A stretch of DNA of 64,000 bases from Candidatus Marinacidobacterium sp. (GTDB lineage Bacteria > Acidobacteriota > Vicinamibacteria > Marinacidobacterales > Marinacidobacteraceae). A program made the translations under genes and the position numbers. Positions 12,249 through 35,098 of this stretch are shown in pieces (position 1 is the first letter of the stretch; every line of letters begins with the position of its first letter). The stretch covers positions 1,784,582 through 1,848,581 of the forward strand of contig CBDHFO010000017.1 in assembly GCA_965262645.1 (NCBI GenBank), read 5' to 3'. The notes under the pieces are model-generated. The model made no database searches, had not been told where the DNA came from, and was given only the letters and a program-made list of their open reading frames with translations.

Positions 12249-14375
12249 TCAGGACAAGAAAGGACTCGGGCGCCCGTAGCTCAGGATCAGTAGTTCCTTC
12301 TTCGCGCGGGTCGCCGCGACGTAGAGCAGCGCGCGTTCCTTCGTCTCCGCCTTCTCCCGCTCAGCCGCATCCCCGGCGCCCGCGTAGGCCCTGGGCTGGG
12401 GCACGAGCCCGGCGTTCACGCTGGCGATCACGACGCGGTCGAATTCGAGTCCCTTGACGCGGTGCATGGTCGCGAGACGGACCCCCTCCTTCGTCCCGTC
12501 GTCCACCGTGTCCGGCCCCAGCCGGAAGACCGGCAGATCGCGATCCCGCAGCCCCCCCTCCAGCGAGTCGAGCTCCCGCTTCGTGGGAGCGACGATGCAC
12601 ACGCTGCGCAGGAGCCGCCCCTGCCCGCGCAGGCGCTCCAGGTACTGGACTATTCCCGCTGCCTGCTTCTCGCGGGACTCGAAGCGCTGGAGGAGCGGCT
12701 CGGGTCCGTGGGTCAGGGAACGGATCCGGTCGTCGTCCGCACCCCCGTCGAGATCGTCAATCGGACGGCCGCGGAGCAGGGTCGCGGCCCAGCCGCGGGT
12801 TTCCTCGGTGGTTCGGTAGTTGAGACGCAACTTGCGGGAGCGGCCGACGATGTTGATCCCACACCGGCTGAGTACGACCCGGCTCCGGCCGTAAATCCGC
12901 TGGTGCGCGTCCCCGACAAGGAACAGGTTGTCCTGACCTTCGGGGACGATGCGCCGCAATAGCCGGAACGCCTGCGCGCTCATGTCCTGGGCCTCGTCCA
13001 CGATGACCGACCGGTAGGCGAGTGCGGCTGCTCCGGCATCCAGCAGGCTGGCGGCGTCCCGGTAGGCGTCGTCCACCTCCTTCAGGCCGCGCTCGGCGAG
13101 CTGGGCGCGGTACTCCTCGAAGACGCGCCACACCTTGACCCGGGCGGCGCGGTTCAGCCGGGTGCCGCGCCCGACCCGCGAGACCCGCCGGTACTCCTCC
13201 TCCGTGGTCACCCCCCGGGCCAGCACTACCTGCTCCCACTCGTCCCCGTAGAACGCATCGGGGAACTCCAGCCCCGCGTCCTTCAGGTCGAGCGCGCGCT
13301 CCCAGGACTCGCCGTCCCGTCCGTACTGGACGCGGAAGTCGTAGCGCTGCCCCTGCAGGAAACCGCGAACCCAGCGGTCCAGGTTGGTCACCTCGATGCG
13401 GGCCTTTTCCTCCGGCGTGCAGATCAGGCGCAGGTTCTGCTCGATGTCCACTGCCAGGTTCCGGGTCCACGTCGTGAAGAGGATCCGGCCGCCGTCCGCC
13501 GCCTGCCGACCCAGTTGACGGGCGAGTTGACGGGCGAGCCAGCGCGCCCGGTGCATGGCGACCACCGTCTTGCCGGTGCCCGCGCCTCCGAGCACCCGCA
13601 CCGGGCCGTTCCAGTGGCGTTCCGCGAGCCGCCGCTGGGAGGGGTGGAGGAACACCCGCCAGCGCTCCAGCGGCGCATTCAGCATCGCCTCCAGCTCCAG
13701 TTGGTCGTGCGCGATGGCGAAGCGGGACTGTGAGTCGAGCCGGCCCAACGCCGCCCCGAAGTCGTCCGGGTCCACGGGGGACTCCGGCGCTTCCCGTTCG
13801 AGCACGAGCGCCTCGTAGGACTCGCCCGCCATGAGGAAGAAGAGCGCCTCGTAGGCTTCCACCGGCAGCCGAGCCTGCAAATCGTCAAGGTCCGGCTCAC
13901 TCCGGATCTCCCGAACCTCCGGCAGCATGGCCTCGGGAACGCCGAGCCGCACCAGCTCGCGGTCCCGCACCCCGTCGAACGCTTGTGGACCGCGGCCTGC
14001 GGCGGTCGGCGCCGCTTCCGGCGGCGCCGCGGACTGGGGCTCGTACACCTGGAGCGCCCCGGTCTCCCGGTTGATGCGGCATTCGTGGCGCTCCGCCCAG
14101 GCGTACGCCTCGTCGTGCTTGTCGGCCCAGAGCAGCAGGTGGACATTCCCCGTCGCGGGCTTCAGCACGATGGCGCGGTAGCCGCCGTCAATCCGCAGCG
14201 AGCGCATCGCCGCATCACGCGCCCCGTGGATGCGCTCGTAGTTGAGGCCGGTCGAGGTCGGGTTCGCGTTGAACTTCGTGATGAACGCGCGCACGCTGCG
14301 CTGCTGCGGGCGCGGCAGTTGCGCGAACGCCGACAGGAAGTCGGCGGACATGGCGATCTGGATGGCTTCCCGCAT
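12249..14375 (-). CDS. UvrD/REP-type superfamily-1 helicase with an N-terminal RelE/ParE-like domain of about 110 aa
   Basis: Motifs GGAGTGKT, VIVDEAQDMS, LNYRTT, MHRVKGLEFDRVVIA and LYVAATRAKKEL. N-terminus has ...SLRIDGGYRAIVLKPATGNVHLLLWADKHDEAY. GAGGAGGAG Shine-Dalgarno, and a GTGATG start overlapping the upstream TGA. Confidence 0.85.
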   Translation of the reverse strand: MREAIQIAMSADFLSAFAQLPRPQQRSVRAFITKFNANPTSTGLNYERIHGARDAAMRSLRIDGGYRAIVLKPATGNVHLLLWADKHDEAYAWAERHECRINRETGALQVYEPQSAAPPEAAPTAAGRGPQAFDGVRDRELVRLGVPEAMLPEVREIRSEPDLDDLQARLPVEAYEALFFLMAGESYEALVLEREAPESPVDPDDFGAALGRLDSQSRFAIAHDQLELEAMLNAPLERWRVFLHPSQRRLAERHWNGPVRVLGGAGTGKTVVAMHRARWLARQLARQLGRQAADGGRILFTTWTRNLAVDIEQNLRLICTPEEKARIEVTNLDRWVRGFLQGQRYDFRVQYGRDGESWERALDLKDAGLEFPDAFYGDEWEQVVLARGVTTEEEYRRVSRVGRGTRLNRAARVKVWRVFEEYRAQLAERGLKEVDDAYRDAASLLDAGAAALAYRSVIVDEAQDMSAQAFRLLRRIVPEGQDNLFLVGDAHQRIYGRSRVVLSRCGINIVGRSRKLRLNYRTTEETRGWAATLLRGRPIDDLDGGADDDRIRSLTHGPEPLLQRFESREKQAAGIVQYLERLRGQGRLLRSVCIVAPTKRELDSLEGGLRDRDLPVFRLGPDTVDDGTKEGVRLATMHRVKGLEFDRVVIASVNAGLVPQPRAYAGAGDAAEREKAETKERALLYVAATRAKKELLILSYGRPSPFLS

Positions 14376-17300
14376 CACTCCTCCTCAGAGAGGGCCGCGA
14401 CGATACCGGCCCCGCCCCCGGAGTGGTCCGGCCCGACGAACACCCGCCAGCCGGCTTCGCGAAACGCGCCCGCTCCGCCTTCTTGCTCGGAAAGCAGCAT
14501 GGCGACCTTCGCGCCGAGCCAGGCCGCCTCGGCCTCGGCGACCACCGTGCCCCCGTCACCCGCCAGTTCGAAGCCAACCTCCGGGACTGGCGCACCGCTG
14601 TCGGCGAGTGCCCGCAACAGCGGACGCGCCTCCGGCGCGGCCATCTCCACCGCCTCCCGCCACACCGCGTCGGCCACTTCCGGCTCGGAAGGCGGCTCGA
14701 GCTTCGGGCCGAACTCGGGGTAGCGCTGGCTTTCGATGCCGAGCCGGGTCGTCCAGAAGCCGCCGGGTAGGAATTGCAGGAGGTTGAACGCGCGGAGCGC
14801 GCCGTTCCAGGTTCGCCGGTAGTCCTTCGCACTCCGGCTCGCCTCGTCGTCGTGGAGGTGCAGGACCGCGACGGCCGCGTCCGGCTCCCCGCGCTCGACG
14901 GCGGTCAGGGGCAGGGCGAGGAAGAGGTCCACCGGCCCCGCCTCCTTGCCGATCCACTGGCCCCGCCCGGCAACGCACGCCGGCTCCGGCAACTCCGCCA
15001 GCCGGTCGCGCACCACTCCCGGCGACACTTTCTCCACCGCCGCCGCGAAGGCCGCCCGAAACTCCGGATCCTGCATCCGCTCGCGGTCGAAAAGCGCGCA
15101 GAGCCTCGTGAAGACGGCCCGCTTCCAGCGGAGCGGGTCCGGATCCCCGAGCCAGGCGACGAGCAGCGAGAGCGAAGACCCGCCGAGCCGGGAACGGAGC
15201 CCGCCGGTGTCCCAGCGCCCGTCGAGCGACTGCTGCAGCGGGTTCATATCGTGCTCCCCCAACTCCCCCGCCAGCAGGTCCGGCGCGTCGGCGCTCCCGC
15301 CGAAAGCTTCTTCGAGGTCGTACCAGGTGAGCGACCAGACAAGGTAGCCGGCGCCGGAGAGCGCCATCCGCTTTGCCGAGTCGTCGTCCGTCACGTCGCG
15401 GTGGTGTTCGAAGCCGTCCGTGAACACCGCCAGCGGCGGCGCTTCCGGCGTCCGGTGGGCCGGACGGATCAGGAAGTCGGGCCGGCACCGGATCCGGACG
15501 CCGTCGGCGGGGCCGAGTTCGACCTGCGGCTCGACGTACCAGGTGCGTTCCCCCACCCGCAGCACGTACCCGGGCCGGCCCCGGACCAGGTCGTGGCGGA
15601 CCCGGGCGCGCGGAGCGGTTCCCGCTTCCGGCGGCCTCCTGAGCGCCTCGATGAACCGCTCCTCCAGCCGGCTTTCGAGCAGCGCGTGGCTCCGCACCTC
15701 GTGGAGCCCTCGAACCTCCTGCAACGCGCCGGCGTGCGCCAGGATCAGATCGAGCACCTCGATGGCGGTCTTCCGCGAGGTCCGCGCCATGTCGCGGCTG
15801 CGGCGGTAGGCGAAGACGCAGCGGTGGCAGCCGTCCTTCGCCGGGTCGCGGGCGCAGACGCACGCGGCGAGGGCGTTCCGCGCCGTCCTGAACACGGAGA
15901 CCAGCTTCTCCGGCGCGGTCATCAACTCCTTCAGGTACCCCGTCCCGCCGGGCACGGTGTCGTAGAGCACCAGGTAGCCCTGGCGCGGCCCGCCGTCGGC
16001 TGTCGGGTATTCCGCGTTCTGCACCCGCAGGTGGTCAATGCGGCCCCCGAAGTGCCGCCGGAGCCCGAGCTCGAGCGCCGCGACGAAGGACACCGTGCGC
16101 CGGTCCGACCGGCCGCCGTCCGCGACCGGGAGCAGCATCCGGATCGCCTCGGACCGGAACTCGCGGTAGAGGTAGAGGCAGTCCGCGATGTCGCTGGCCC
16201 CGTTCCCGTCCGGCTCGCCGCGACCGCCCACCCCGCCGGAGCGTTCCTCGCGCCGCGCCGGACAGGACCGCGTGTGGCGCGGGCCATCGTCCCTCCGCCG
16301 CTGGACGGCGCCGCAGCGGCGGCAGATCCGGAATCCGGTGCGGGGCAGCTCGATCCCGGCGAAGGTCGTCCGCTGGCCGGCGTCATCGAGCCGGCCGAAG
16401 TTCAGGTCCCGGAAGGTTGCCGAGGCGACGTACTCGAAGCCGAAGACCGCCTCGGGCCGCTCCACCGCGAAGGCGCCGGCGACCGCGTCCGGATCCCAGT
16501 CGGTGAGCAGTTCGCGCGTGTAGAAGAGCGGTTCCCGGTCGTCGCGCTCGTCCATGATGCGGGTGCGGCGGTCGTCGCTGAGCGCGTGCACCACGCGGAG
16601 CCGCAGCATCTCGCGGAGCTGCCCCCGGTCCGCCCACATCGCGTCGCCGCAGCGAGGGCAGGCGCGGTGCTTGTCCCCACCCGCGACGTTCTCGCCGTAG
16701 GGGCACTCGCGGCAGAGCCGCCAGCGTTCGATCTCCGAGACGCGCACGTCCACCCGGTCAATGTCCACGTGCCGCCCGCCGGCGTAGAACTCGTTTTCCG
16801 GCGCGAACTCACTGAGCGCCGAGGCGGCGGGCCGCACGTACTCGTAGGTGTCGTGCTCGAAGTCGCGGCCCGTCGCTTCCTCGTCCGGGCGCCGCTCCCG
16901 GCCCCGGTAGATCACGGACTTCAGCGTCACCCCCTTCTCCGGGAAGGCGTAGTTGGGCAGCAGTCCCTCGTCGGTCAGGAAGTTGAACGTCGGCCGGCCG
17001 TTCATTTGCCGCAGCACCGATTGCAGCCCGCTCCGCTCCCGCCGCAGTTCCTTGACCTCCGCGTCGCCCGCCTCGTCCCGCGGCCCGCCGTCGAGCTTTC
17101 GGATCCGCCGCCCCAACAGACCGATCTCGGCCTTGAGCGCCTTCCGCTCGGCGACCACCTCCTCCAACCGATCCGCGATCTGCAGCACGCGCGAACCGCC
17201 GTCCTCCGCGTCCCCGAGCAGGAAGCGGCCCAGGGTTTCGCGCGAGGCGGGCTCCAGGTCGGGGGCGAACGCCGCGCCGAACGCTTCCAGAATCGAGGTG

Positions 17301-19111
17301 GCGCGGCGCTGCACGAAATCGAAGAAGGGGTAGGGGAACCGGTCCAACGCGCCCTTCTCGACGGCATCCAGGACGTCGCGGACTTGCCGCGGCACGGCCA
17401 GTTCGTCCACCCCGCTCGCCGACCAGCAGTCGAACGCGAACGCGGTGAGCTGGCGTTCGAGCACCGCCGAGGCGTTCAGGAACACCCCCGGCGGCTCGGT
17501 TCGGCCCGCCAGCATGTCGAGCGGTTCCGCGTAGAAGTAGAGGTCGTGCGGCCGGGCGGCGGCGATCGCCAGCGTGAAGGCGTTGCCGTCCCGGCGTCCT
17601 GCGCGCCCGCTGCGCTGGACGTAGTTCTCCGGCGCGGGCGGCGCGGAGGCGAGCGCCACGGTGGAGAGGTCGCCGATATCGATCCCGAGTTCCAGCGTCG
17701 GGGTCGCCGACAGCAGGTTCGGGTCCCAGGGCGCCGGGTCGGCCGCCGCGAAGCGCCGTTGCAGTTCCTCGCGCTGTTCGCGGGTGAGGAGCGCGGTGTG
17801 TTCGGCGGCCACTATCCGCCGCAGCGCGCTCCGCCGGTAGAGCTTGCCGAACCAGGTGGGTGCGGCGGGTTCGCAGCGGTCGTACGCGTCGCGTGAGCCC
17901 GGGTCAAGGCAGGGGAGCCCGAGCCAGAGATCCGCCTCGTCTTCCGGCACCACGAGCGGCCGGGACGCGCCCCCGCGCAGCACCCAGGCGCGCGGCGTCA
18001 CGAAAAAGCGTTCCGGGTCGAGCGCCCAGGCATGGGTGCCGCCGTGGGACGGCCCGACCGGGACCCGGCGCACGAGACCCGCGTCTTCAAGCGCCGCCAG
18101 CGCGTCGAGCAGCACTGCCGGGGCGTCCTGCATGGCGAGCGAGAGCGGCGGAAGCGCCAGCATCCTTTCGGTCCAGACGCGGTACCAGGAGCGCCGCGAC
18201 CCCCCGCCGGCGAGCGGTTCGAGTCCGTCGCCGGAGGCCCCGTCGGTCGGGAACACCGGGCGGGGTGAGCCCCGTCCGAATTCAGGGAGCGGGAGCTGTC
18301 CGCTCAGCCAGCGGATGGAGGCGCCGTTCCCGAGGAAACGGTCGTTCCCGTCGCTCCGGATCGCCCCGCGCTCCCGCAGCCGCCGCAGGATTCCGAGGAG
18401 CAACGCCCGCACCGTCTCCGCGGTGATCCCTCGCAGGCTGCCGAACTCTTCGCGAAGGCGGCGGTGCGCACTCGCGGCGGCGCGTTCGAAGCGCTCCCGG
18501 TCCACCCCGACGGCGGCGGCGCGGGTGCGCTCCAGCGTGCGGCCGATGGTGGACTTGTGGCCCAGCTCGGCGAGCGTTTCCCAGCGCAGGCGGTCCGCGA
18601 CCAGGTCCGGAAGGTCCGAGTCCGGCGGCAGCCGTCCGTCGCGCTGGAGCCGGGCGAAGTCCCGCAGCCAGTGGCGGTCCGGGGCGAGGAACTCCGCGAC
18701 GAAGCGCTCGGGGTCGAGCGCGCCGGGGTTCGCCTCCAGGTCCCGCCACCGCGCGACCACCGCGCCGTCGCCGCCCGCTGTCCCCGCGAGTTCCGCGAGC
18801 GAGATCCCGTCGCGCTCCGCGACCACCTGGGCGATGGCCGCCCGCGGGATGTTCGGCCAGGTGCGGGCGGCGATGAACCCCGCCCGGTGGGCGGCGTCCT
18901 GCACATTGTCGGAAAACGCGATGACCTTGCGGTCGTCGTTGTGGCGGGACGCGAACACCTGCCCCAGCGCGACGCTCAGCAGGTTGGACGCGCGCGCCCC
19001 GAAGATGAGGAGCGCCTCCCGCGCCCCGCAGAACGGGCAGTCCCGGCTCAGGCGGCGCACCGGCTTCCCGTCCCGGGGCCGGAAGGTCTCGGTGGCCTCG
19101 GGCAGGAACAC
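14375..19111 (-). CDS. C-terminal fragment of giant helicase: RecA2 lobe, DUF1998-like Zn-Cys clusters, PD-(D/E)xK/Vsr-like segment, unknown C-terminal domain
   Basis: QRSGRAGRRDGNAF (motif VI). Cys clusters CRECPYGENVAGGDKHRACPRCGD, CRRCGAV...SCP and CVCARDPAKDGCHRCVF. CRPDFLIRP...LAVFTDGFEHH. Same reading frame as 19136-20818, separated only by a TGA plus 8 sense codons. Confidence 0.8.
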   Translation of the reverse strand: MFLPEATETFRPRDGKPVRRLSRDCPFCGAREALLIFGARASNLLSVALGQVFASRHNDDRKVIAFSDNVQDAAHRAGFIAARTWPNIPRAAIAQVVAERDGISLAELAGTAGGDGAVVARWRDLEANPGALDPERFVAEFLAPDRHWLRDFARLQRDGRLPPDSDLPDLVADRLRWETLAELGHKSTIGRTLERTRAAAVGVDRERFERAAASAHRRLREEFGSLRGITAETVRALLLGILRRLRERGAIRSDGNDRFLGNGASIRWLSGQLPLPEFGRGSPRPVFPTDGASGDGLEPLAGGGSRRSWYRVWTERMLALPPLSLAMQDAPAVLLDALAALEDAGLVRRVPVGPSHGGTHAWALDPERFFVTPRAWVLRGGASRPLVVPEDEADLWLGLPCLDPGSRDAYDRCEPAAPTWFGKLYRRSALRRIVAAEHTALLTREQREELQRRFAAADPAPWDPNLLSATPTLELGIDIGDLSTVALASAPPAPENYVQRSGRAGRRDGNAFTLAIAAARPHDLYFYAEPLDMLAGRTEPPGVFLNASAVLERQLTAFAFDCWSASGVDELAVPRQVRDVLDAVEKGALDRFPYPFFDFVQRRATSILEAFGAAFAPDLEPASRETLGRFLLGDAEDGGSRVLQIADRLEEVVAERKALKAEIGLLGRRIRKLDGGPRDEAGDAEVKELRRERSGLQSVLRQMNGRPTFNFLTDEGLLPNYAFPEKGVTLKSVIYRGRERRPDEEATGRDFEHDTYEYVRPAASALSEFAPENEFYAGGRHVDIDRVDVRVSEIERWRLCRECPYGENVAGGDKHRACPRCGDAMWADRGQLREMLRLRVVHALSDDRRTRIMDERDDREPLFYTRELLTDWDPDAVAGAFAVERPEAVFGFEYVASATFRDLNFGRLDDAGQRTTFAGIELPRTGFRICRRCGAVQRRRDDGPRHTRSCPARREERSGGVGGRGEPDGNGASDIADCLYLYREFRSEAIRMLLPVADGGRSDRRTVSFVAALELGLRRHFGGRIDHLRVQNAEYPTADGGPRQGYLVLYDTVPGGTGYLKELMTAPEKLVSVFRTARNALAACVCARDPAKDGCHRCVFAYRRSRDMARTSRKTAIEVLDLILAHAGALQEVRGLHEVRSHALLESRLEERFIEALRRPPEAGTAPRARVRHDLVRGRPGYVLRVGERTWYVEPQVELGPADGVRIRCRPDFLIRPAHRTPEAPPLAVFTDGFEHHRDVTDDDSAKRMALSGAGYLVWSLTWYDLEEAFGGSADAPDLLAGELGEHDMNPLQQSLDGRWDTGGLRSRLGGSSLSLLVAWLGDPDPLRWKRAVFTRLCALFDRERMQDPEFRAAFAAAVEKVSPGVVRDRLAELPEPACVAGRGQWIGKEAGPVDLFLALPLTAVERGEPDAAVAVLHLHDDEASRSAKDYRRTWNGALRAFNLLQFLPGGFWTTRLGIESQRYPEFGPKLEPPSEPEVADAVWREAVEMAAPEARPLLRALADSGAPVPEVGFELAGDGGTVVAEAEAAWLGAKVAMLLSEQEGGAGAFREAGWRVFVGPDHSGGGAGIVAALSEEE

Positions 19112-19135
19112 CCGCGCCAGCCGGTCCGGCCTCCC

Positions 19136-20818
19136 TCAGTCGTCGCAGTCTTCGGTCCCGTGCCCCGCGCCGAGCCACCGGCAGTCGCAGAGCGTCTTCG
19201 GCTCGCCGCGCGCCCCGGCCGGCGGTTCGTCGGGGAAGAGGAAGACAACGTCCACGTCCCGCGCGAAGAAGCGGTTGTAGAAGACTTGCAGGTTCGCATC
19301 CAGCTTCCGGTCGCCGGCCCGCCGTACCGCGCCCCACCCCGTCCGGCGGCACTCGCGGCACTGGACGAGCGGCAGGTGGAGCGCCCCGTCTTCGGCGGCG
19401 AGGTCGTCGGAGTGCCGCAGCGCGTAGCGGGCGCCGCCGGGCGTCTCCACCGGCCGGACGCTGCACACCATCCGACGCAGCTCCCGGACCCAGAGGTGCA
19501 GCCCGACCCGGAGGAAGGGCTGGAGCCGCGCGCCTTCCCCGTCCCCCGCCCGGCGGCGCGCTGCCGAGATCAACGCACAGAGGCCGTTCAGCACTGCCTG
19601 CGCCTCGTCGTCGTCCGCGACCGGGAGGCTCGGCCGGAGCTGGTCCACCACCTCGGGGAGCGGGCGCGGGCGTCCGTCCAGCACCCGCAGCAGGTTCACG
19701 AAGGCGCTGTGCCCGGGCAGCCGCTCCGCGAGCGCGGCCCGCCACTCCTTGCCGCCGAAGTTCTCCGGCGCGACGGTCGGGAAAAACAGCGCGCCCACCG
19801 ACCGGAGGTAGTCCTCGCCGCTCCCGAAGCGGGCGGGGTCCGCCGCCCCGGCGACGTCCGGATGCGGCGTCAGCACGTCCGTGATCAGGCTTTCGCCGAG
19901 GAACTCGTCAATTCCCTGCCGCGACTCGCCCACGATGGCGTCCTCGTCGAAGTCCGCCTTGAAGACGGCGGACACGTAGTCGAGCAGCTTCCCCTCCTGC
20001 CTCGCCTCCCCGAGCGTCGCCGAGGTCCCCACGCAGATCAGATCCTCCCCCGCGCCGAGCCGCACCCGGAGCCGCCGGATGAGGCAGGCGAGGTCGGTCC
20101 CCTGCGCCCCGTCGAAGGTGTGCAGTTCGTCCACCACCAGGTAGCGCAGCGCGCCGGGCGCGTTCCGCCGCCAGAGCCGCTGGTCCGAGGGCCGGACCAG
20201 CAGGTAGTCCAGCATCTTGTAGTTCGTGAGCAGGATGTCCGGCGGCTGGTCGAGCAGGGTCTCCCGGTCCGTGATCACCCGCTCCGGCCCCATCCCCGTC
20301 GCCCGCGGCCCCGCCTTCGCGTCCTCCCCGATGAAGAGTCCCGCAGTCACCCGCCCCCGGAGCTCCGGATTCCGGTGGATCGTCGCCGCGATCCGCCCCG
20401 CCTGGTCCGTCGCCAGCGCGTTCATCGGGTAGATCAGGATCGCCTTGATCCCCGGCTTCCCCGCCTCCCGCCGGCAGTGGTCGAGCACCGGCCACAGGAA
20501 GCACTCCGTCTTCCCCGACCCCGTCCCGGTGGCCACCACCGTCGAGCGCCCGACTCCGCTCCTCAGCCGCTCCATCGCCCGCCGCTGGTGCCGGTAGGGC
20601 GTGAACCCGAGCGGAATCTCCGGAAACGGCTCCCCACCCTCCGCCGCCCGCTGGAACGGCAAGGCAACGGAGAGATATGGCCCCTTGACCAGGTTCTCCG
20701 GCGTCCCCAGGAAGTCGTCCACGACCCCCGCCAGAGCCGGATTCGACGGCCCGAACCCGGTCCGCAGAAAGTCCGAGAGCGCCGTGACCACCTCTGCGGC
20801 AACGGCGGACGGGATCAC
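19136..20818 (-). CDS. N-terminal fragment of giant helicase: DExH RecA1 lobe plus Zn-finger insertion
   Basis: ATGTGSGKTECF (motif I), LVVDELHTFDG (motif II, DELH), GTSATLG (motif III) and CRECRRTGWG. Ends at the in-frame TGA 19136-19138. Confidence 0.8.
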   Translation of the reverse strand: MIPSAVAAEVVTALSDFLRTGFGPSNPALAGVVDDFLGTPENLVKGPYLSVALPFQRAAEGGEPFPEIPLGFTPYRHQRRAMERLRSGVGRSTVVATGTGSGKTECFLWPVLDHCRREAGKPGIKAILIYPMNALATDQAGRIAATIHRNPELRGRVTAGLFIGEDAKAGPRATGMGPERVITDRETLLDQPPDILLTNYKMLDYLLVRPSDQRLWRRNAPGALRYLVVDELHTFDGAQGTDLACLIRRLRVRLGAGEDLICVGTSATLGEARQEGKLLDYVSAVFKADFDEDAIVGESRQGIDEFLGESLITDVLTPHPDVAGAADPARFGSGEDYLRSVGALFFPTVAPENFGGKEWRAALAERLPGHSAFVNLLRVLDGRPRPLPEVVDQLRPSLPVADDDEAQAVLNGLCALISAARRRAGDGEGARLQPFLRVGLHLWVRELRRMVCSVRPVETPGGARYALRHSDDLAAEDGALHLPLVQCRECRRTGWGAVRRAGDRKLDANLQVFYNRFFARDVDVVFLFPDEPPAGARGEPKTLCDCRWLGAGHGTEDCDD

Positions 20819-20878
20819 GGAACGTCGGCCAAACTGATTGGCGGGTTCAGCACGCCGGCCTCGTGTCCACAGCTCGGC

Positions 20879-21307
20879 TTACTTATGCAGCGCCACTCTC
20901 ATGTGTCGGGCCGCGTCGGTTGCGTTGAGAATCCGCATCCCGCGATAGGGATGGAGCGCCAGCAGGTCTCCGTCTCCACTAACGATCAGGTCCGCGCCAG
21001 CGGCGATTCCGGTGGCGATCACGACATCGTCGTCAGGGTCCGACGGAACAGTTCGCGGGACGGATTGCAGGGCGACGAACTCTGATGCGAGAGCGTACCG
21101 GGCCGCCAACTGGAGGGGAGTCTTCCGGTGTTGCAGAAATTTCGGCCGGAATTTCGGCCTGCCCAAGACCTCGACGAGTTCGGCCATCAGGCGGCGACTC
21201 GTGAACAACGTAACCCTTCGGTCGTCCGCGAGATCCAGAATGAGCTGCGGGTTTCCGCCCCAGAGCAAGCCCGAGACGACAGTGTTCGTGTCAAGAACCA
21301 GTCGCAC
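20879..21307 (-). CDS. PIN-domain toxin (VapC-like)
   Basis: LVLDTNTVVSGLL and DDDVVIATGIAAGADLIVSGDGDLL PIN signatures. Overlaps the upstream small antitoxin ORF. Confidence 0.8.
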   Translation of the reverse strand: MRLVLDTNTVVSGLLWGGNPQLILDLADDRRVTLFTSRRLMAELVEVLGRPKFRPKFLQHRKTPLQLAARYALASEFVALQSVPRTVPSDPDDDVVIATGIAAGADLIVSGDGDLLALHPYRGMRILNATDAARHMRVALHK

Positions 21308-21533
21308 GCCGCCGCCTTTCAGCGCGGACGGCGTTCACTTCTGCCTGGATCTCCTCCATCGTCATGGGTGGGATGTTGTCCGCTGCCATTCCCCGGGCGT
21401 CCCGAAGAAGTTCCCCGAGGTTAAACCGGCGGAGCTGCTCCCGAAAGATCGCCTCCACCGCGTCCGGAGCGAGAAGACCAGCCTTCTCGATCTCCCTCTC
21501 AAGATCCTCCGGCAGTTCCAGAGTGACAGCCAT
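21291..21533 (-). CDS. putative antitoxin partner of the PIN toxin
   Basis: 80-aa acidic/helical ORF overlapping the PIN gene start by 17 nt. Typical type II TA arrangement. Confidence 0.6.
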   Translation of the reverse strand: MAVTLELPEDLEREIEKAGLLAPDAVEAIFREQLRRFNLGELLRDARGMAADNIPPMTMEEIQAEVNAVRAERRRRATGS

Positions 21534-21606
21534 GATGTTCCCCGCGCCCCGCAGCCGAGGCGAACTCGCATCCTACCACCGCCCCCACCCCGGCCGGAGC
21601 GCCCCG

Positions 21607-21650
21607 GGAACGCCGGTGTTCACACCGGCACCGTCCGCCGAAGGCGGACG
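21607..21650. repeat. REP-like hairpin pair
   Basis: CCGGTGTTCACACCGG (21613-21628) and GTCCGCCGAAGGCGGAC (21633-21649). Confidence 0.5.
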
Positions 21651-21741
21651 AAACGCACAACTCTCCTACTCCCGGATGACGCTGCCGGCTTGGACCGCCG
21701 ACCAAGGCCTTCGGCGCTGTCCAGCTCCGGGAGCTCCAACC

Positions 21742-22353
21742 TCAGTGCTCGTTCGGAGAGCGGCCCCACGCTTCCAGACAGCTCAGGAGGAAGTCCACGG
21801 GAAGTGCTGCCGGATTCGAATAGCGCCCGTACGCGTTCAGACCCGGCATGGCGCAAAGCCAGCCCGTCTCACCCCGATTGCCGAAGAGGACATGAACCAC
21901 CGCCTGGGTTCGGGGAGCCTTGAAGGACAAGGAAATCTCTCCGTCCGGCGTCGGGTACACGTTCGGCGCCAATGGTTGGTGCGCAAGGGCACGCAGCGCC
22001 CTCCGCGCCGCTGACCGCGCCTCGTCGTCCACCGGAGGGAGCCCGTCCTCCTCGATCTCCTCATCAATGCCGTCCAGTTCCATCAGGGCTTCCGGCAGCC
22101 AACCTGCAACTGCCCCAACCTTCCCTCGCCCATCGGCGCGAGCCGCCACACCCCTCTTGCCCTTCGGCATCGCTGACGCGAGAGCACCCCTTAGAGCGGC
22201 CTCCAGGGCGGCAACCGCTTCGGGATTCACGGCGTCCGCCCCGCCCGCAACCTTCCCCGGATCATCCGGCAGGGTGATGTGCAGCGTCGTCACGACAGTC
22301 TTCTCGGCCTGCAAGAGCCAACCGGCCAATGTAGCACCGACCCGCCACACCAA
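21742..22353 (-). CDS. hypothetical protein (start uncertain)
   Basis: The C-terminal half reads like real protein (YPTPDGEISLSFKAPRTQAVVHVLFGNRGETGWLCAMPGLNAYGRY). The track start is TTG. No family motif recognised. Confidence 0.4.
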   Translation of the reverse strand: MVWRVGATLAGWLLQAEKTVVTTLHITLPDDPGKVAGGADAVNPEAVAALEAALRGALASAMPKGKRGVAARADGRGKVGAVAGWLPEALMELDGIDEEIEEDGLPPVDDEARSAARRALRALAHQPLAPNVYPTPDGEISLSFKAPRTQAVVHVLFGNRGETGWLCAMPGLNAYGRYSNPAALPVDFLLSCLEAWGRSPNEH

Positions 22354-22539
22354 CGACCGCGCCCCGTACCGCCCGCGAAGCCACGTCCAGGCGGGGGCCG
22401 CCGACCGAAAACGCAGCCACGCCGGAACACCGAGAGCCGCCGTCGGGGGTCAGAGACCGCCGACTTCCAGGTCGGCCCAGCCTCCCGGTGGGGGCCGCGC
22501 GGGAGCACGACCCCTCCCGGACAGCGCGACGCTACGCGT

Positions 22540-23385
22540 TCAAGCATCGCCGTCCGTCGGTTCAAGCCTTGGGGGCACCAGGTAGCCCGGCACGGAGATG
22601 TGGTATGTGGGATGAAACGTCCCGCCTTCGACAAGCGCCCGCGGCCCGGAACCGAACGCGACCCGCCCAGCGTCGAGATACTTTCGCCAACTGTGCCCGT
22701 GCCGGTCCGCAAAGACGAAGAACAGTCGGCGGACCTTCACGCTTCGGCAGGCTGCCAGCAGCGTCATGAGCGGTTCCGGCCGCATGGACACCAGCCCTTC
22801 AAAGATCTTGTCGAGATGGTCGAAGCTAGCGTTGCCGGGCAGTTCGTCCAGCGCCTCGAGGATCGCCCGTTCGGGAGACGAAGACCGGACGGGCCAGCGC
22901 CACACCTCGACCGCCAGTCCGCCAGCTCCCGCCGCGCCGCTGGCTTCCGTGATGCCGACAGGATCGTTTCCGAACAGCTTGCATTGGCGCAGGACCATCC
23001 GTTCCCGCATCGGCAGGCGTTTCAGCCAGGACGGCACGTCGCCGTAGAGATGGACGCGAGGCCTGCCCCCGAGGCTCAGATAGTGCACATGGCCGGCAAG
23101 ATCGAGGGCGCTCTCGCCGCCCAGGTGCACGTCGTAGCCCATGAGCCGTTGCAGCGAGACGAGGACGACTTCCCAGGACGCCCCACTCACCGCGACGTTT
23201 GCCGGCAGCGGACGGCGATAGACCCCGCGCAGCACCCGCTCAAGCCATCCCCGAGCGACGTAGCCGTGGATGGACTTGGGGTCGATTCCACGGGCTTTGA
23301 GCCATGGCGTATCGACCATGAAACCGGGCGGGACCGTGTCGAGTAGAGGCTTTAGCCGAGGCTCTCTTTGATGGCTCATAGCCAC
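22540..23385 (-). CDS. AbiEi-family (type IV TA antitoxin-like) transcriptional regulator, no cognate AbiEii adjacent
   Basis: N-terminal wHTH-like GFMVDTPWLKARGIDPKSIHGYVARGWLERVLRGVYRRP and ...SPERAILEALDELP, typical of AbiEi_4-type proteins (recalled, not searched). Confidence 0.65.
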   Translation of the reverse strand: MAMSHQREPRLKPLLDTVPPGFMVDTPWLKARGIDPKSIHGYVARGWLERVLRGVYRRPLPANVAVSGASWEVVLVSLQRLMGYDVHLGGESALDLAGHVHYLSLGGRPRVHLYGDVPSWLKRLPMRERMVLRQCKLFGNDPVGITEASGAAGAGGLAVEVWRWPVRSSSPERAILEALDELPGNASFDHLDKIFEGLVSMRPEPLMTLLAACRSVKVRRLFFVFADRHGHSWRKYLDAGRVAFGSGPRALVEGGTFHPTYHISVPGYLVPPRLEPTDGDA

Positions 23386-23634
23386 TAAATTACAAAACTA
23401 TCGCACTAGAGTCCAGAAGTTCTTTCCACAAGGTCCGATTGCATGGCTAACAACCATCTAAGTTGGCAAGTCGACACAGCATGCGGCTTCCTGCTGCCCA
23501 CCGCCAGGCCGCACTCGCAGTCCGCTGAGCGACCCCCTACCCCAGACAGCACCGCCGGCAACGGACCGCCGACCTCCGGTCGGCATCGCGCGGGAGCGCG
23601 AAACCGGCTTGGATGGCGCTGCGCTCTGTGAACG

Positions 23635-24546
23635 TCAATACGCCTCCACGCTGATCCAGCCCCGATCGAGGAAATGGCGGTACACCATCTCCCGACTCAG
23701 GTTGAGATCCTCGGCAACAGCAATACGGACAGCTGCCGACTCGCTGGGCTGTTTATCCGCCATCAGCCGATCCAGCTCCGCTGGCGGTAGCAACAGGTCG
23801 GCGGCAAAGCGGTTACAGCGGATCTCCACGCTCCGGCTCGCCGTCGGAAGGCGATCCAGTACGTCGGCGGGCACCGGATCGAGGCCGCTGGTCTCGCGGA
23901 GCAGGTGTCCGAGCTCGTGGAACAGGGTGAAGATCTGCCGCGTGGCGCTCCGCGAGCTGTTCACGTAGATGACCGGCAGCTCAGGGTCGTAGATCGAGAA
24001 GCCGCAGTAGTCGTCCTCGCGGAACGCGTCCTTGAAGACGAACACCCCGGCCTCGTAGAGCGCGTCGCGCCACTCCTTGAACGCCGTCGGCGTGTCGGTC
24101 CAGCCACGTTGATCTTCGAGGGAAACTCCGAGGATTGCCCGTACTTCCTCCGGATCGGGTGCGCTATCTCGAAACGCCGGCAAAATGGGCTGTTCAACCG
24201 GCCTGCGGCCCTCGGTGAGCTCGGTGAGGCTGATCTGGCACGCCTGCGCCTTGCGAACTAGCAGGTGCATGCGGGTCGGCAGTCCCGCGAACTCGCGCTC
24301 CGGCAGGGTCCGGAACGAGCGCGACGGCTCCGGTACGTCGGGTGGCTCCGGAAAGAACAGGACGGACACGGGCACTTTGAAGCGATCCGCCACGGATTCC
24401 AACTGGACGTAGGTGGGGGCCTTGCCGTGGGACTCCCAGGCGTGAATGTCACGGAAATGCAGCTCCGCCGCTTCGAGCGAGTAACCAGCGCGCTCACGCG
24501 CCCAGCCGATGAGATCGGGGTTGATCGCCAAGCGGTCGGAGGTCAT
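23635..24546 (-). CDS. XRE-type HTH fused to ImmA/IrrE (M78) metallopeptidase
   Basis: Start MTSDRL at 24546. HEXXH motif in LFHELGHLL. The N-terminus resembles a Cro/C1 HTH. Confidence 0.8.
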   Translation of the reverse strand: MTSDRLAINPDLIGWARERAGYSLEAAELHFRDIHAWESHGKAPTYVQLESVADRFKVPVSVLFFPEPPDVPEPSRSFRTLPEREFAGLPTRMHLLVRKAQACQISLTELTEGRRPVEQPILPAFRDSAPDPEEVRAILGVSLEDQRGWTDTPTAFKEWRDALYEAGVFVFKDAFREDDYCGFSIYDPELPVIYVNSSRSATRQIFTLFHELGHLLRETSGLDPVPADVLDRLPTASRSVEIRCNRFAADLLLPPAELDRLMADKQPSESAAVRIAVAEDLNLSREMVYRHFLDRGWISVEAY

Positions 24547-24999
24547 GGGGTGGGTGCCGGTCGGCGCGGAGGGTAGCGGAACGCGACTACCCCTCAAGTG
24601 ACCGGAACCCGCCCAGACGCCCGGACGACCGAGGCCACAGTCCCGCCATGCCAACGCGCCTGGACTCTCTCCTCAACCCCGGACTGCGCTGCCGGCGTGG
24701 ACCGCCGGACCTCTGGTCGGCACCGCGCACCTCTCGGCCCCGTATCGCGCCCCCACCAGAAGCGCGCTGCCCTCCTGGCAGGCGTGGCGCTCCGATGTCC
24801 TATGACTTCGACGGAGCCGTTCGCAGGCATTCCAGGCGAAAGTAGCGATGCGATACGGTTTGAGAGGACGGCTGTGACAAGGGCGCAGCGGTTCGACGTG
24901 CGTCCCGCGCAGGTTCAGGACTGCCGGAAGCGGGGAGAGCGGGATCCGATGGAGTGCGGCGCCCTCTGGTTCGCACGAGTCGGTCCGTCGCTCATGTCG

Positions 25000-25031
25000 T
25001 ATATTGGACCGCTCCCAGACGCCTGCGTCTG
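25000..25031 (+). promoter_or_regulatory. candidate -10 box plus palindromic operator upstream of the Zn-ribbon/methyltransferase module
   Basis: TATATT at 25000-25005, conspicuous in a G+C-rich genome. Perfect inverted repeat CAGACGC-ct-GCGTCTG at 25016-25031, about 40 nt upstream of the ATG at 25070. Confidence 0.3.
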
Positions 25032-25069
25032 CAGGCACACGTTCGGACGAGAGGAGTGCCCCGATCATC

Positions 25070-25327
25070 ATGGCAGATAACAGATTGCAGCTATTCTCAG
25101 TTCCAGCGACCTTTCTGGACGGAACAACGGTGGAAGTCAGAGCGGAGGGAAACAATGCGGCGTGGCATTGTCCGTGCGGCACCCCGCTGCCGTTGGTGGG
25201 GCGCTGCTATTACCAATTCGGACAGGACTGCCATACGGTGTGTCCGGACTGCGGACGGACTTACAGGGTTCACAAGGATGTCGCCACGAAACGAACGAAG
25301 TCTGTGGAAGAGGTCCCGCCGCTGTGA
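25070..25327 (+). CDS. small Zn-ribbon protein
   Basis: MADNRLQLF... with CPC...CPDC cysteines. GAGGAG upstream. The stop overlaps the next ORF's start (GTGA). Confidence 0.5.
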   Translation: MADNRLQLFSVPATFLDGTTVEVRAEGNNAAWHCPCGTPLPLVGRCYYQFGQDCHTVCPDCGRTYRVHKDVATKRTKSVEEVPPL

Positions 25328-25572
25328 CCCCCCCTGATGACTGCCCCTTGTGCGGGCGCAGACTGATCGAAGCCCACTGGATTTCCGAATACAGTCAGTT
25401 TCTCTTCACCTACCCTTCCTGCACCACGTTCACGATCCCCCCGGAACTGGACAAATCGTTCAGAACTGAGTTTAGGGGCGATCCCGACATTCCGCGCCTT
25501 TCCCGCTACCTGCGTGAGGCCGGAGAGGACGACAACAGGGAGATCACTGTCGAGTCGTGGCGCACTGTGTAG
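25324..25572 (+). CDS. small hypothetical protein with an N-terminal CPLCG knuckle
   Basis: GTG at 25324 overlaps the previous TGA. 82 codons. Ends 51 nt before the methyltransferase ATG. Confidence 0.35.
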   Translation: MTPPDDCPLCGRRLIEAHWISEYSQFLFTYPSCTTFTIPPELDKSFRTEFRGDPDIPRLSRYLREAGEDDNREITVESWRTV

Positions 25573-25623
25573 GACAACAATTGTCGCTTGTACTTGGGAT
25601 CGCGACTTGGTACGGTATGTGCT

Positions 25624-26838
25624 ATGGCGACAATCACCCTCCAGCGCAACGTCCAATTCCTGTATGAGGAACACCTAGCCCGGGCCGAGGCTCAGGCCCT
25701 CGGGTGTGGTCTGTGGGATCGCGACGAGGGCAGCCTGCGGCAGGTGCGAGTGGATGTCAATGGGGAGTCCTCTGCTGTGCTGCGCCGAGCGGCCTACGTG
25801 GGAGCCCTCGACGGGGAAGACACGATCTATGAGCAGTTGATCCGGCCCAAGTTCCAGGGTGGGGCTTTCAACAGGACCCGCTCCGTAAATCAGTACCTGA
25901 CCCATTGGATCTATCCGTATCGCGGGAAGTTCCACCCCCAGATGGTCCGTGCGCTCCTCAACATCCTGGGTGTCACGCGGGGATCTCTCGTGCTGGATCC
26001 GCAGGTTGGGAGCGGGACTACCGCACTGGAGGCATCGCTGCTCGGAATCCGGTGTATTGGCGTCGATATCTCCCCACTGTGCGTCCTGCTGACCCGGGTG
26101 AAGACCCGATCCGTCGAGGCGGTGGGCCCGCTCCGGGAGCGCGTAGAAGCGCTCCTAGATAACGAAACGCTAGATCCTGCCGACGCTTCGCTCGCCCTCG
26201 ACGATAACCCGCTCGTCGCCGACTTTGTCCAGGTGGCGCGGATGACGACTCTGAGTGACGTGTCGCGGCGGAAGCGGGACGGGCATACCTGGTTCCGGAG
26301 AAACCTGTCGGCCATGCTGGAATCTGTAGAAGCCCATGCCCAGGCCCTCAAGGTGTTCGACATCCGCCCTGGTCAGGTTTCCGCCATCCGGGGAGACGCG
26401 CGAAATCTGCGCGCCTCGGGAATCGAAGATGCGACGATCGACGCAGTTGTCACGTCGCCTCCCTATTCGATCGCACTGGACTACGTGAAGAACGACGAGC
26501 ACGCGCTGGAGGCCCTTGGGATAGATCTGGAAGCCCTCCGGATGGAAATGACGGGAGTTCGCGGCCAAGGGCCCAAGGAAAAAATGACCCTCTACAACGA
26601 AGACATACAGACGATGTTCTGTGAGGTAGCGCGAGTATTGAAACCCGGTGCGAAGGCCGCGTTCGTAGTCGGCGACGCTACCGTTGATGGGCGGGAGTTG
26701 ACCACGACCAAGGATATGAAGACCTGGGCAACGAGCGCCGGCCTAGAGTTCGAGGGGGAGGTTCAGAAGGTGATCTTCGGCCTCTACAGTACGATGAAGG
26801 ACGAAATGATCCTGTTGTTCAAGAAGCCCCCTCAATAG
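25624..26838 (+). CDS. DNA methyltransferase (N6-adenine or N4-cytosine, SPPY type)
   Basis: Motif I VLDPQVGSGTTALEA precedes motif IV VVTSPPYSIALDY. ATG at 25624 preferred over the track's TTG at 25588. Confidence 0.8.
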   Translation: MATITLQRNVQFLYEEHLARAEAQALGCGLWDRDEGSLRQVRVDVNGESSAVLRRAAYVGALDGEDTIYEQLIRPKFQGGAFNRTRSVNQYLTHWIYPYRGKFHPQMVRALLNILGVTRGSLVLDPQVGSGTTALEASLLGIRCIGVDISPLCVLLTRVKTRSVEAVGPLRERVEALLDNETLDPADASLALDDNPLVADFVQVARMTTLSDVSRRKRDGHTWFRRNLSAMLESVEAHAQALKVFDIRPGQVSAIRGDARNLRASGIEDATIDAVVTSPPYSIALDYVKNDEHALEALGIDLEALRMEMTGVRGQGPKEKMTLYNEDIQTMFCEVARVLKPGAKAAFVVGDATVDGRELTTTKDMKTWATSAGLEFEGEVQKVIFGLYSTMKDEMILLFKKPPQ

Positions 26839-27218
26839 GGCGGCAGCCTCTTCACGTGAATGCAGCGATGCCTGCGTCGCGGTCTAGGAGAGCGTCACGT
26901 GCCAGTGGCGCTCGATGCTCCAGGAGGACGTGAACGGCGTGACTAGCGCTACATCTAGCACCCCTTGGAGAATGCACGTATCGGGGTCCGACGCAGGAAG
27001 CACCGCGGCGTGCGAGGACGATGAGACGGCCCTTGGGGCGGCAAGGAAGCTGGAACATAGTCCGGACGTGCCGCACGATGGCCCAGAGGCGAGCCGGCTG
27101 GCGGAATGACGCGAACACAAGAACGACAAACCCTGATGTCAGCCGAAGTGTTGCGTCGTGCCGGAATCCTTGGGCTCGATGCTCTCCGACCCGTGTCGTC
27201 GGTTCTCGCCCGAGCGGA

Positions 27219-28310: not shown

Positions 28311-28648
28311 GTCAGGCCCGCACTCACGGCCGACACGCCCGTTCCTGTAAGCCGTTCAGTGTTTCCTGTTGAAACGGACCGCAATCGGCCTGTGAGCCAA
28401 CCCGCCCAGATGGAAGTGGGTCGCATCCCGGACGCGAGCACCTTTGGGAGCCGCTGGCCATCTTGTTGAGTCACTGGACGCGGGACTTGATCGCCCAGAC
28501 GCGCGACACGCAGACCGCGAGCGCGGAGTGTAGCCAACTTCGACTGCTGCCTAGCTTCTTTTGCCACAGATGCTGCCGCTCCCGGGCCAGTCTCTCCGGA
28601 CAGTACAAGCTTCCGGTTCTCGTTCCGAAGCCTGTTCACCAGCGTCAC
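28307..28648 (-). CDS. possible small ORF coupled (ATGA) to the HEPN-like gene
   Basis: GTG start. The stop overlaps the ATG at 28310. The sequence is Arg/Ala/Gly-rich and low-complexity, so it may be spurious. Confidence 0.25.
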   Translation of the reverse strand: MTLVNRLRNENRKLVLSGETGPGAAASVAKEARQQSKLATLRARGLRVARLGDQVPRPVTQQDGQRLPKVLASGMRPTSIWAGWLTGRLRSVSTGNTERLTGTGVSAVSAGLT

Positions 28649-28717
28649 AACCCTACGCCACCTCTCGAAGGAACTCTACGGGAGCGCATTTCCCAGACGA
28701 GGACACGCCACGCCAAT

Positions 28718-35094: not shown

Positions 35095-35098
35095 CTAG
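35095..35098. repeat. target-site duplication CTAG (left copy)
   Basis: CTAG directly abuts the IS inverted repeat. Identical CTAG at 36738-36741. The duplication could be read as CTAGGAG, because the IR begins with GAG. Confidence 0.7.

Follow-up and report, generated by a model that had tools for sequence, protein, structure and literature searches.

ARMADA type II is a four-gene anti-phage system of which the E. coli locus has been tested, and its ArmC in E. coli O157:H7 corresponds to Sakai ECs_5263 and EDL933 Z5901 (Bell et al. 2025, PMC12458937, 10.1101/2025.09.22.677730). In E. coli, all four genes are required for defence, and the same holds for the Walker A/B motifs of ArmC (PMC12458937, section 6). 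Large helicases of the same YprA-family branch are found in Druantia types I-III, where DruE combines RecA1, a helical insert, a Zn module, RecA2, an OB-CON-DUF1998 part and a C-terminal nuclease region. The related helicase of DISARM is naturally divided over two proteins, DrmA and DrmB (PMC12458937), which in class I DISARM are accompanied by DrmC, DrmD and DrmMI. The founding member of the helicase family, MrfA/YprA of B. subtilis (PDB 6znp), has the DEAD, Helicase_C and MZB core in common with ArmC, but is a 751-aa DNA-repair helicase without inserts, nuclease or defence partners.

Here, we analysed a 64,000-nucleotide stretch of DNA (the window) from a high-GC environmental bacterium, a host unlike that of the E. 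coli ARMADA II system. Based on sequence comparison, the window contains an ARMADA II locus in which armC is interrupted by a stop codon at Cys561 and armB is split by an insertion sequence (IS), so that the system would be dead and armC a young pseudogene, an explanation that we consider, as a whole, to be correct with a probability of roughly 0.9. The features of the locus are listed in Table 1.

Table 1. Features of the armA-armD region, in the order of the minus strand (positions are those of the window).
Feature	Position	Strand	Details
armA, SNF2/BrxHII/DrmD-like helicase, 989 aa	37043..40012	-	Pfam SNF2-rel_dom + Helicase_C
armB 5' fragment, ~first 110 codons	36742..37068	-	cut off by IS
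IS inside armB	35095..36741	+	transposase 35192-36565 (+); Pfam DDE_Tnp_1, DUF772, DDE_Tnp_1_6
armB 3' part, PglX/type IIG-like N6-adenine methyltransferase	30509..35094	-	ORF of 1506 aa from 35029
Variable cargo, ~9.7 kb, unrelated defence and toxin-antitoxin genes	20819..30508	.	GC 57-67%; Pfam, PADLOC, composition
OLD/GajA-like ATPase (cargo)	28718-30496	-	
Type II MTase (cargo)	25588-26838	+	
IrrE/M78 peptidase (cargo)	23635-24654	-	
AbiEi-like (cargo)	22540-23385	-	
80-aa ORF and PIN_3 toxin (cargo)	20879-21533	-	
armC N-terminal fragment, 560 codons	19139..20818	-	Pfam DEAD 1.9e-21; N-terminus MIPSAV... agrees with orthologues
Premature TGA in armC	19136..19138	-	stands for TGC (Cys561); changed base: + strand 19136, T here, G elsewhere
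armC C-terminal part, 1586 codons	14375..19135	-	Pfam Helicase_C + MZB (DUF1998); alignment to E. coli ArmC
armD, GajB-like UvrD/SF1 helicase with N-terminal extra domain, 709 aa, intact	12249..14378	-	Pfam UvrD-helicase + UvrD_C; PADLOC GajB

The ORF listing gives two minus-strand ORFs for armC, 19136..20818 (560 aa) and 14375..19111 (1578 aa), and the latter is annotated as a separate 1578-aa protein (P0175) in a public NCBI/ENA assembly. A sequence-only reading of this DNA had proposed that both are parts of the same gene, interrupted by an in-frame TGA that looked like a recent nonsense mutation or a sequencing error. Translation of 14375-20950 in one frame bore out the single gene and yielded one internal stop, ...GTEDCDD*GRPDRLARVFLP..., which is followed by eight sense codons and then by the GTG at 19111. 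With the stop ignored, armC comprises 2,147 codons in a single frame of which this TGA is the sole break. The fragments are no chance juxtaposition, since each of the 120 best matches in the database is a single protein of ~2,000-2,900 aa that spans both parts; the more distant homologues with names come from MAGs of Vicinamibacterales, Bryobacterales, Longimicrobiales and Gammaproteobacteria. As had been suggested, the orthologues reveal which codon was lost: the 201 aligned bases around the stop differ at two positions from a 99% amino acid-identical orthologue (P0001, locus L001), one being TGC versus TGA and the other lying ~85 nt downstream. Cysteine is found at position 561 in 18 of the 18 fetched homologues and in E. 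coli ArmC, and this column is Cys in 50 of 60 ArmC sequences from species-representative genomes.

The domain content of the two parts agrees with the view that neither is a complete helicase. The N-terminal fragment contains the NTR, RecA1 (GSGKT, DELH, SAT), a helical insert and the first part of a Cys-rich Zn module, and the C-terminal part contains the remainder of this module (CPFCG), RecA2 (QRSGRAGR), a coiled-coil/HTH region, OB-CON-DUF1998 (MZB), a restriction-endonuclease-like domain (RPDF...FTDGFEHH) and ~320 aa of further C-terminal domains. The Pfam matches of the YprA-family core (DEAD, Helicase_C and DUF1998/MZB), which are contiguous in P0001, are here divided over two fragments. 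All motifs quoted in the earlier reading were found (GSGKT, DELH, SAT, CRECRRTGW, CDCRWLG, CPFCGA, QRSGRAGR, DGCHRC and RPDFLI...FTDGFEHH), and we also agree with it on the Cys-rich insertion that separates the RecA lobes, on the DUF1998 clusters and on a C-terminal segment resembling Vsr/restriction endonucleases. For ARMADA II, a Vsr-type (PD-(D/E)xK) nuclease domain is expected at the C-terminus of ArmC. In this C-terminal region, RPDF...F(T/M)DGF..H...K is an invariant motif of ArmC, and structure models of this region (pLDDT 83 and 81) predict a restriction-endonuclease-like fold. The best PDB neighbours of the nuclease-like domain model (pLDDT 81) were TnsA (E 0.03, probability 0.90) and BsoBI 1dc1 (E 0.18), and 1dc1 is also the neighbour given in Table S2 of PMC12458937. 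A Pfam scan of the armC product gave no Vsr match, comparison of the C-terminal 453 aa with the PDB by sequence gave nothing below E = 0.6, and Foldseek with the whole C-terminal model returned only weak nuclease matches (E > 0.03).

Within the Zn module, which in ARMADA II is expected at the start of RecA2, C487, C490, C594 and C597 are conserved in all 60 species-level ArmC sequences, and C544, C546, C558 and C561 in 49-53 of these 60. Cys561 would be the fourth zinc ligand of this CxC...CxxC cluster, to judge from the spacing. The second Cys cluster is absent from ~10 of the 60 ArmC sequences, therefore it cannot be essential throughout the family; truncation of armC, however, takes away far more than one presumed ligand.

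The assignment to ArmC rests on full-length similarity. In BLASTP, the armC product aligned end to end with E. coli Sakai ArmC (38% identity over 2192 columns, 1388 bits), whereas alignment with E. coli DruE was local only (124 bits). The two ArmC proteins are collinear and have in common their invariant Cys clusters, DUF1998 and, near the C-terminus, the nuclease motif RPDF...DGF..H. By this similarity, the gene is armC, encoding a YprA-family SF2 helicase and predicted nuclease of the ARMADA type II anti-phage system. The earlier reading had instead seen a resemblance to DruE of Druantia or to a DrmA-DrmB fusion of DISARM, and the HMM searches that it had proposed indeed returned MZB (DUF1998) from Pfam, and DruE3 (6.5e-53) and DruE1 (3.3e-45) as the best PADLOC matches, with weaker matches to DrmA. 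DruE tops the PADLOC scoring because PADLOC (2023) has no ArmC models. The nearest PDB structures by sequence, which might also seem to favour such an assignment, are the large ~2,000-aa helicases 9tu7 and 9wae, and MrfA. However, the DruE HMM and PDB matches are confined to the helicase motifs and DUF1998, and E. coli DruE and both of the large helicases nearest in the PDB resemble the protein at motif level only. Moreover, the Druantia partners DruH (type III), DruA-D (type I) and DruM/F/G (type II) were absent among the neighbours in Pfam and PADLOC searches, and the Pfam scan of the armC product detected no PLD family, in contrast to the tandem PLD-like nuclease domains of type III DruE. 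With class I DISARM there are correspondences, ArmA matching DrmD, ArmB matching DrmMI and ArmC corresponding to DrmA plus DrmB, but helicase and DUF1998 are fused in ArmC orthologues, the break here lies elsewhere, inside the Zn module, the window has no DrmC/PLD gene, and there is an extra UvrD-like ArmD. With ArmA, ArmB and ArmD as partners, membership of Druantia or DISARM was rejected as very improbable.

The partner genes follow the ARMADA II pattern. ArmA, for which ARMADA II predicts a BrxHII/RapA/DrmD-like SNF2 helicase upstream on the same strand, is 52% identical over its full length to E. coli Sakai ArmA, with PADLOC matches to DrmD (3.7e-97) and also BrxHII, and armA is apparently undamaged. 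ArmD is 48% identical to E. coli ArmD over its full length from residue 1, including the N-terminus with its putative RelE-like fold. The GTG start of armD and the stop of armC share the four bases GTGA, which reproduces the 4-nt armC/armD overlap of E. coli. The gene armB spans 30509-37068 on the minus strand including the IS. A 135-aa ORF (36661-37068) matches E. coli ArmB over residues 2-114 (E = 5e-20), and the 3' part is 49% identical to E. coli ArmB from E. coli residue 137 on, with Pfam Eco57I and N6_Mtase and PADLOC REase_MTase_IIG (3e-260, profile positions 178-1573) and DrmMI matches. The order armA, armB, cargo, armC and armD on the minus strand keeps that of ARMADA II, but the genes are not contiguous: those of E. 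coli abut, and here armB and armC are separated by the cargo.

Comparable cargo is found at the armB-armC junction of other ARMADA II loci. In 22 of 48 other loci that we inspected, this junction holds an insert of 0.7-9.3 kb, and a further 6 lack armB within 10 kb upstream. No conserved extra gene was found in these inserts, and families recur only among close relatives. A tRNA-Glu that ARAGORN placed at 21603-21675 was not confirmed by Rfam.

The sequence-only reading had noticed neither the wider operon nor the IS in armB. The IS ends in imperfect 21-nt terminal inverted repeats (35095-35115 and 36721-36741) with CTAG on both flanks, and in-silico removal of 35099-36741 (1643 nt) gives back one armB ORF of 1640 aa. 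A contig of run X3, from the source sample, spans the right IS junction with 0 differences, whereas runs X6 and X9 contain the exact empty site, in which the joint 35096->36740 skips 1643 nt. Related strains in other samples thus lack both lesions, as seen in two runs for the IS site and in four for the TGA site.

That the TGA is a single-base change and that close relatives carry TGC could point to an error in the deposited assembly, the true genome having TGC, and the earlier reading had left this option standing next to a recent mutation. It had suggested a read check at 19136-19138, for which we used Logan contigs, assembled independently from each run. Four separate runs of the one source sample (X1-X4) have T at 19136 and zero differences from the window across 18700-19600 at depths of 20-54, although in such contigs a minority TGC allele is possible. 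Variant bubbles were retained elsewhere in the same runs, and none at 19136. Runs X5, X6, X7 and X9, from other samples, carry G at this position at full depth. The stop in armC is real, and an artefact of sequencing or assembly is highly unlikely.

Selenoproteins are classically recognised by an in-frame UGA where homologues have a conserved Cys, and here the UGA aligns exactly with such a Cys, so that it might be read as selenocysteine, replacing Cys at a metal ligand, or otherwise be read through to give a full-length product. Against this, the stop allele is private to one sample, the related strains in the four runs from other samples having TGC, and no stop occurs at this codon in any of the 59 species-level ArmC genes that are uninterrupted. 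Folding of the 82 nt that begin with the UGA was no more stable than that of shuffled sequences (z = -0.51), and Rfam gave no match at E <= 10 in this area, hence no signal of a SECIS hairpin, and a tRNA-Sec was not found in the window. Furthermore, TGA ends 16 of the 22 confident genes in the window, armC itself among them, on which ground an alternative genetic code was rejected. Selenocysteine or read-through was likewise rejected, and we regard any such recoding as extremely improbable.

It could also be argued that the interruption yields a functional split helicase, with a translational restart at GTG 19111 and assembly of the two products (560 and 1578 aa) into active ArmC. The fragments share one frame, with 27 nt between them, GGGAGG follows the TGA, and the division of the related DISARM helicase provides a precedent. 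However, GGGAGG is 18 nt away from the GTG and belongs to a Gly-Arg coding sequence that is the same in the intact orthologue, and nothing has therefore evolved for a restart. The break falls inside the Zn module instead of at a domain border and removes one presumed ligand, and armB is broken as well. Orthologues naturally divided at this point, which according to the earlier reading would indicate a genuine two-subunit enzyme, were found neither among the 120 best homologues nor in the species-level set, and a natural two-subunit helicase was rejected as very doubtful.

What remains is a nonsense mutation, which is probably recent, making armC a young pseudogene. Codon changes in armC on the branch of the window (27 synonymous, 11 nonsynonymous) were counted alongside those on the intact sister branch (36 and 12), and in this comparison the window's armC had no stops or frameshifts beyond the TGA. 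One C-to-A transversion on the coding strand changed the TGC of Cys561 into TGA in this lineage, so that translation would end after RecA1, at a conserved Cys of the Cys-rich module between the RecA lobes. The truncated product would be without RecA2 (motifs IV-VI), the OB-CON-DUF1998 canopy and the C-terminal nuclease, and is therefore predicted to be incapable of ATP hydrolysis, DNA translocation or DNA cutting. Independently, armB, encoding the PglX-like methyltransferase, is split by the IS after ~codon 110. Since all four genes are needed in E. coli, a locus with armB and armC disrupted is predicted to be inactive; judged from genetic work on the 38%-identical orthologue in E. coli, phage resistance has almost certainly been lost. 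Translation of armD may be reduced as well, through lost translational coupling.

Conceivably, the two lesions are causally linked: if the IS in armB left the host DNA unmarked, ArmC could have become self-toxic and the Cys561 stop would have been selected as a suppressor. We consider this improbable, but if true, ArmB methylation would be what lets ARMADA II distinguish self from non-self, as in restriction-modification. That a methyltransferase and an effector are both broken in one locus is a lead on ARMADA self-recognition.

Genome annotation should treat the two 'helicase' ORFs as a single armC pseudogene belonging to an ARMADA II locus, and not call them DruE; PADLOC-era models mislabel the ArmC clade. 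The finding is of modest importance: the locus is an ordinary decaying member of a known defence system, and one more case of the rapid, lineage-private decay of a costly one, here with two independent lesions in one operon of a community-derived genome. Cargo is often inserted between armB and armC, which is a lead on how defence islands grow.

On the minus strand, the region 14375-20818 contains two ORFs in the same frame (560 and 1578 aa), and translation of frame 14375-20950 (-) gave a single internal stop (...GTEDCDD*GRPDRLARVFLP...). Pfam placed a DEAD domain in the N-terminal part, and Helicase_C and MZB (DUF1998) domains in the C-terminal part. The sequence-only reading, which had described one large helicase gene interrupted by an in-frame TGA, thus described the sequence accurately. 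Both parts have a GC3 of 0.92-0.94, as expected for real genes at the 64-74% GC of this sequence. When the read-through protein was used as a query, the best 120 of thousands of homologues were single proteins of ~2,000-2,900 aa.

The gene had been likened to DruE or a DrmA-DrmB fusion. PADLOC (2023 models) gave DruE as the top score, limited to the helicase motifs and DUF1998, and the closest solved structures by sequence, MrfA and a pair of unnamed large helicases (9tu7, 9wae), matched at motif level only. Bell et al. 2025 (PMC12458937) divide the YprA family into clades and define ARMADA type II, consisting of ArmA (BrxHII-like SNF2 helicase), ArmB (PglX-like methyltransferase), ArmC (YprA-like helicase with a Vsr-type nuclease at the C-terminus) and ArmD (GajB-like UvrD helicase with a RelE-like N-terminus). 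As a reference we used the locus of E. coli O157:H7 that was tested in PMC12458937 and 10.1101/2025.09.22.677730 (Sakai ECs_5259-5264). P0001, an intact orthologue of the interrupted protein, could be aligned over its whole length with E. coli ArmC (38% identity, 1388 bits), whereas its match to E. coli DruE was local only (124 bits), and DruE was rejected. Because the neighbouring genes also match ArmA, ArmB and ArmD, the sequence comparison identifies the interrupted gene as armC of an ARMADA II system; the superfamily proposed earlier thus stands, but the family does not. The 4-nt overlap of the armD start with the armC stop is common to the window and E. coli.

Features of the ARMADA II locus and its cargo
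Feature	Coordinates	Strand	Remarks
armD	12249-14378	-	48% identical to E. coli ArmD from residue 1
armC, C-terminal ORF	14375-19111	-
armC, N-terminal ORF	19136-20818	-
PIN_3 toxin and 80-aa upstream ORF	20879-21533	-	directly in front of armC
Solo AbiEi-like antitoxin gene	22540-23385	-	without AbiEii
IrrE/M78 peptidase	23635-24654	-	RmrA/CapP-like
Type II DNA methyltransferase	25588-26838	+	strand opposite to other cargo
Two ORFs, 113 and 363 aa	27219-28648	-	downstream of ATPase; function not assigned
OLD/GajA/AriA-like ATPase	28718-30496	-
armB ORF	30509-35029	-	49% identical to E. coli ArmB, from ArmB residue 137
IS	35095-36741		inverted repeats 35095-35115 and 36721-36741, CTAG flanking both sides
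DDE transposase gene	35192-36565	+	between armA and armB ORF; DDE_Tnp_1/DUF772
135-aa ORF	36661-37068	-	matches E. coli ArmB residues 2-114
armA	37043-40012	-	52% identical to E. coli ArmA

P0001 is also the closest homologue (99% identical), and alignment with orthologues, proposed as a check in the sequence-only reading, showed a Cys at the position of the stop in 18/18 homologues compared, P0001 included. Over 201 aligned bases around the stop, L001, the contig encoding P0001, differs from the window at 2 positions, TGC for TGA and another base ~85 nt downstream, and the change that created the stop is G to T at 19136 on the plus strand. Four public runs of the one source sample (X1-X4) contain the armC stretch completely, with 0 differences across 18700-19600 at depths of 20-54; these are Logan contigs, from which rare variants are lost, and the source population may still include a Cys allele at low frequency. 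Four runs that differ in sample and organism label (X5, X6, X7 and X9) contain closely related sequence with G at 19136, which gives Cys, at full depth in 4/4. Moreover, the C-terminal ORF is separately recorded as the 1578-aa protein P0175 (NCBI/ENA assembly, 4.50-Mb contig). A one-off assembly error is therefore not the origin of the stop, and the TGA at 19136-19138 is a real allele that is confined to the source lineage. Between the two origins considered earlier, X1-X4 and the TGC in L001 support a recent nonsense mutation, and the four concordant runs argue against a sequencing error.

The residue lost to the stop is C561, the final Cys of a CxC...CxxC cluster. The cluster is part of the Zn-binding module, which Bell et al. 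(PMC12458937) describe as a beta-barrel inserted where RecA2 begins. Across 13 aligned sequences, E. coli ArmC among them, eight Cys residues are invariant (C487, C490, C544, C546, C558, C561, C594 and C597); among species-level ArmC sequences, C487, C490, C594 and C597 are present in 60/60, and C544, C546, C558 and C561 in 49-53/60. The truncated protein retains RecA1 and the helical insert, and lacks RecA2 (QRSGRAGR), the coiled-coil/HTH region, OB-CON-DUF1998 and the nuclease region. SF2 helicases require both RecA lobes for ATP hydrolysis, so that, going by this established knowledge, the N-terminal ArmC fragment could not be an active motor.

The C-terminal 453 aa, modelled from an 11-sequence alignment (pLDDT 83, pTM 0.69), form several alpha/beta domains, and the model as a whole has only weak neighbours in the PDB (BsmI, TnsA, PaqCI and R2 endonuclease domains, all E > 0.03). 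The first domain alone, with the invariant residues RPDF...FTDGFEHH...K (pLDDT 81), matched TnsA best (E 0.03, probability 0.90), followed by BsoBI (1dc1), a neighbour that Bell et al. (PMC12458937) also list for what they call the 'active Vsr domain' in ArmC. These matches fit a nuclease of the restriction-endonuclease fold, and do not prove the specific 'Vsr' label.

Recoding of the UGA, as selenocysteine or by programmed read-through, is very unlikely, since TGA terminates 16/22 confident window genes, armC among them, the 82 nt that start at the UGA are no more stably folded than their shuffles (z = -0.51), Rfam at gathering score gave 0 matches in the window, and at E <= 10 gave 0 around the stop site, and no tRNA-Sec was found in the window. 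Furthermore, species-representative genomes supplied 63 homologous genes of nearly full length; of these, 59 were retained as uninterrupted, and 0/59 have a stop at the Cys561 codon. ARAGORN reported a tRNA-Glu(ttc) at 21603-21675 (-), where Rfam has no tRNA at gathering score or E <= 1; this is probably a false positive. It is conceivable that ribosomes restart at GTG 19111 after the stop. However, the GGGAGG following the stop sits 18 nt from this GTG, and is plain Gly-Arg coding sequence that is found in the intact orthologue too. Naturally split orthologues, which the earlier reading had associated with a genuine two-subunit helicase, were not found either: none is split at this position.

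The armB gene (30509-37068, -) is split by a 1.64-kb IS after about codon 110. When 35099-36741 (1643 nt) is excised in silico, armB becomes one uninterrupted frame of 1640 aa; armB is thus also knocked out. The insertion is absent from both related populations checked, as X6 and X9 contain the exact empty site (joint 35096->36740, skipping 1643 nt, depth 30-36). In the source sample, an X3 contig spans the right IS junction with 0 differences. The depth of the IS is several-fold above that of its flanks, indicating that it is multi-copy. X1 also contains a second, ~5-10% diverged armB that lacks the IS. A related IS (L087 1-512 versus window 36073-36584, 82% identical) is located in a different place in the close relative L087, adjoining a region that matches the window at ~28.9 kb, next to the OLD-like ATPase gene that the window also has.

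The armB-armC gap consists of ~9.7 kb of lower-GC DNA (20819-30508), whose cargo genes were identified by Pfam and PADLOC. Part of this cargo is common to close relatives; L001 is 98% identical to the window over 12249-23605, and L087, a 4.195-Mb contig that is circular per its record name, has an intact armC (2149 aa). In a survey of 48 other ARMADA II loci, armB and armC were adjacent in 20, separated by 0.7-9.3 kb in 22, and in 6 there was no armB within 10 kb upstream, while armC and armD were adjacent almost always. The inserted genes are heterogeneous and differ between lineages (L007-L086). The junction between armB and armC thus resembles a slot for cargo; the available text of the 2025 preprint calls the gene order strict, and we found no mention of such a slot there. 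A rare break in the usually tight armC-armD pair occurs in a Vicinamibacterales MAG (L002/L007 16603-24053, 8.54-Mb contig), where ~7.5 kb with an FGE-sulfatase gene, IS21-type transposase genes and a resolvase separates the two. At 80% likeness, X1-X4 contain many divergent contigs on conserved armC parts (window 18800-19050 and 19230-19530), with indels that differ across the Zn module; thus, the source sample is a community with several different ArmC-type genes.

[quoted passage not shown] Because protection in E. coli needs all four genes, we infer that the window's locus would be inactive. The armC stop is young: the window branch has 11 nonsynonymous and 27 synonymous codon changes, versus 12 and 36 on the intact sister branch, and in this comparison the window armC has no further stops or frameshifts. 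On the simplest reading, a first hit in either gene killed the system and left the second neutral. It is possible that armB was lost first, rendering ArmC toxic and selecting for the armC nonsense mutation, but the viability of E. coli ∆armB mutants speaks against this. Independent ArmC inactivations occur in relatives: in P0171 an in-frame deletion joins ArmC, at residue ~1024, with the C-terminus of ArmD; a frameshift divides P0127 from P0128, which lie on the same 5.05-Mb contig; and frameshifts or deletions affect genes at the loci L011 and L083, and two to three of the 63 species-level ArmC genes overall. The observation is thus confirmed: armC of this ARMADA II system has a true nonsense mutation of recent origin, and armB bears an IS in addition. 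The locus, as a decaying member of a known system, is of low general interest.
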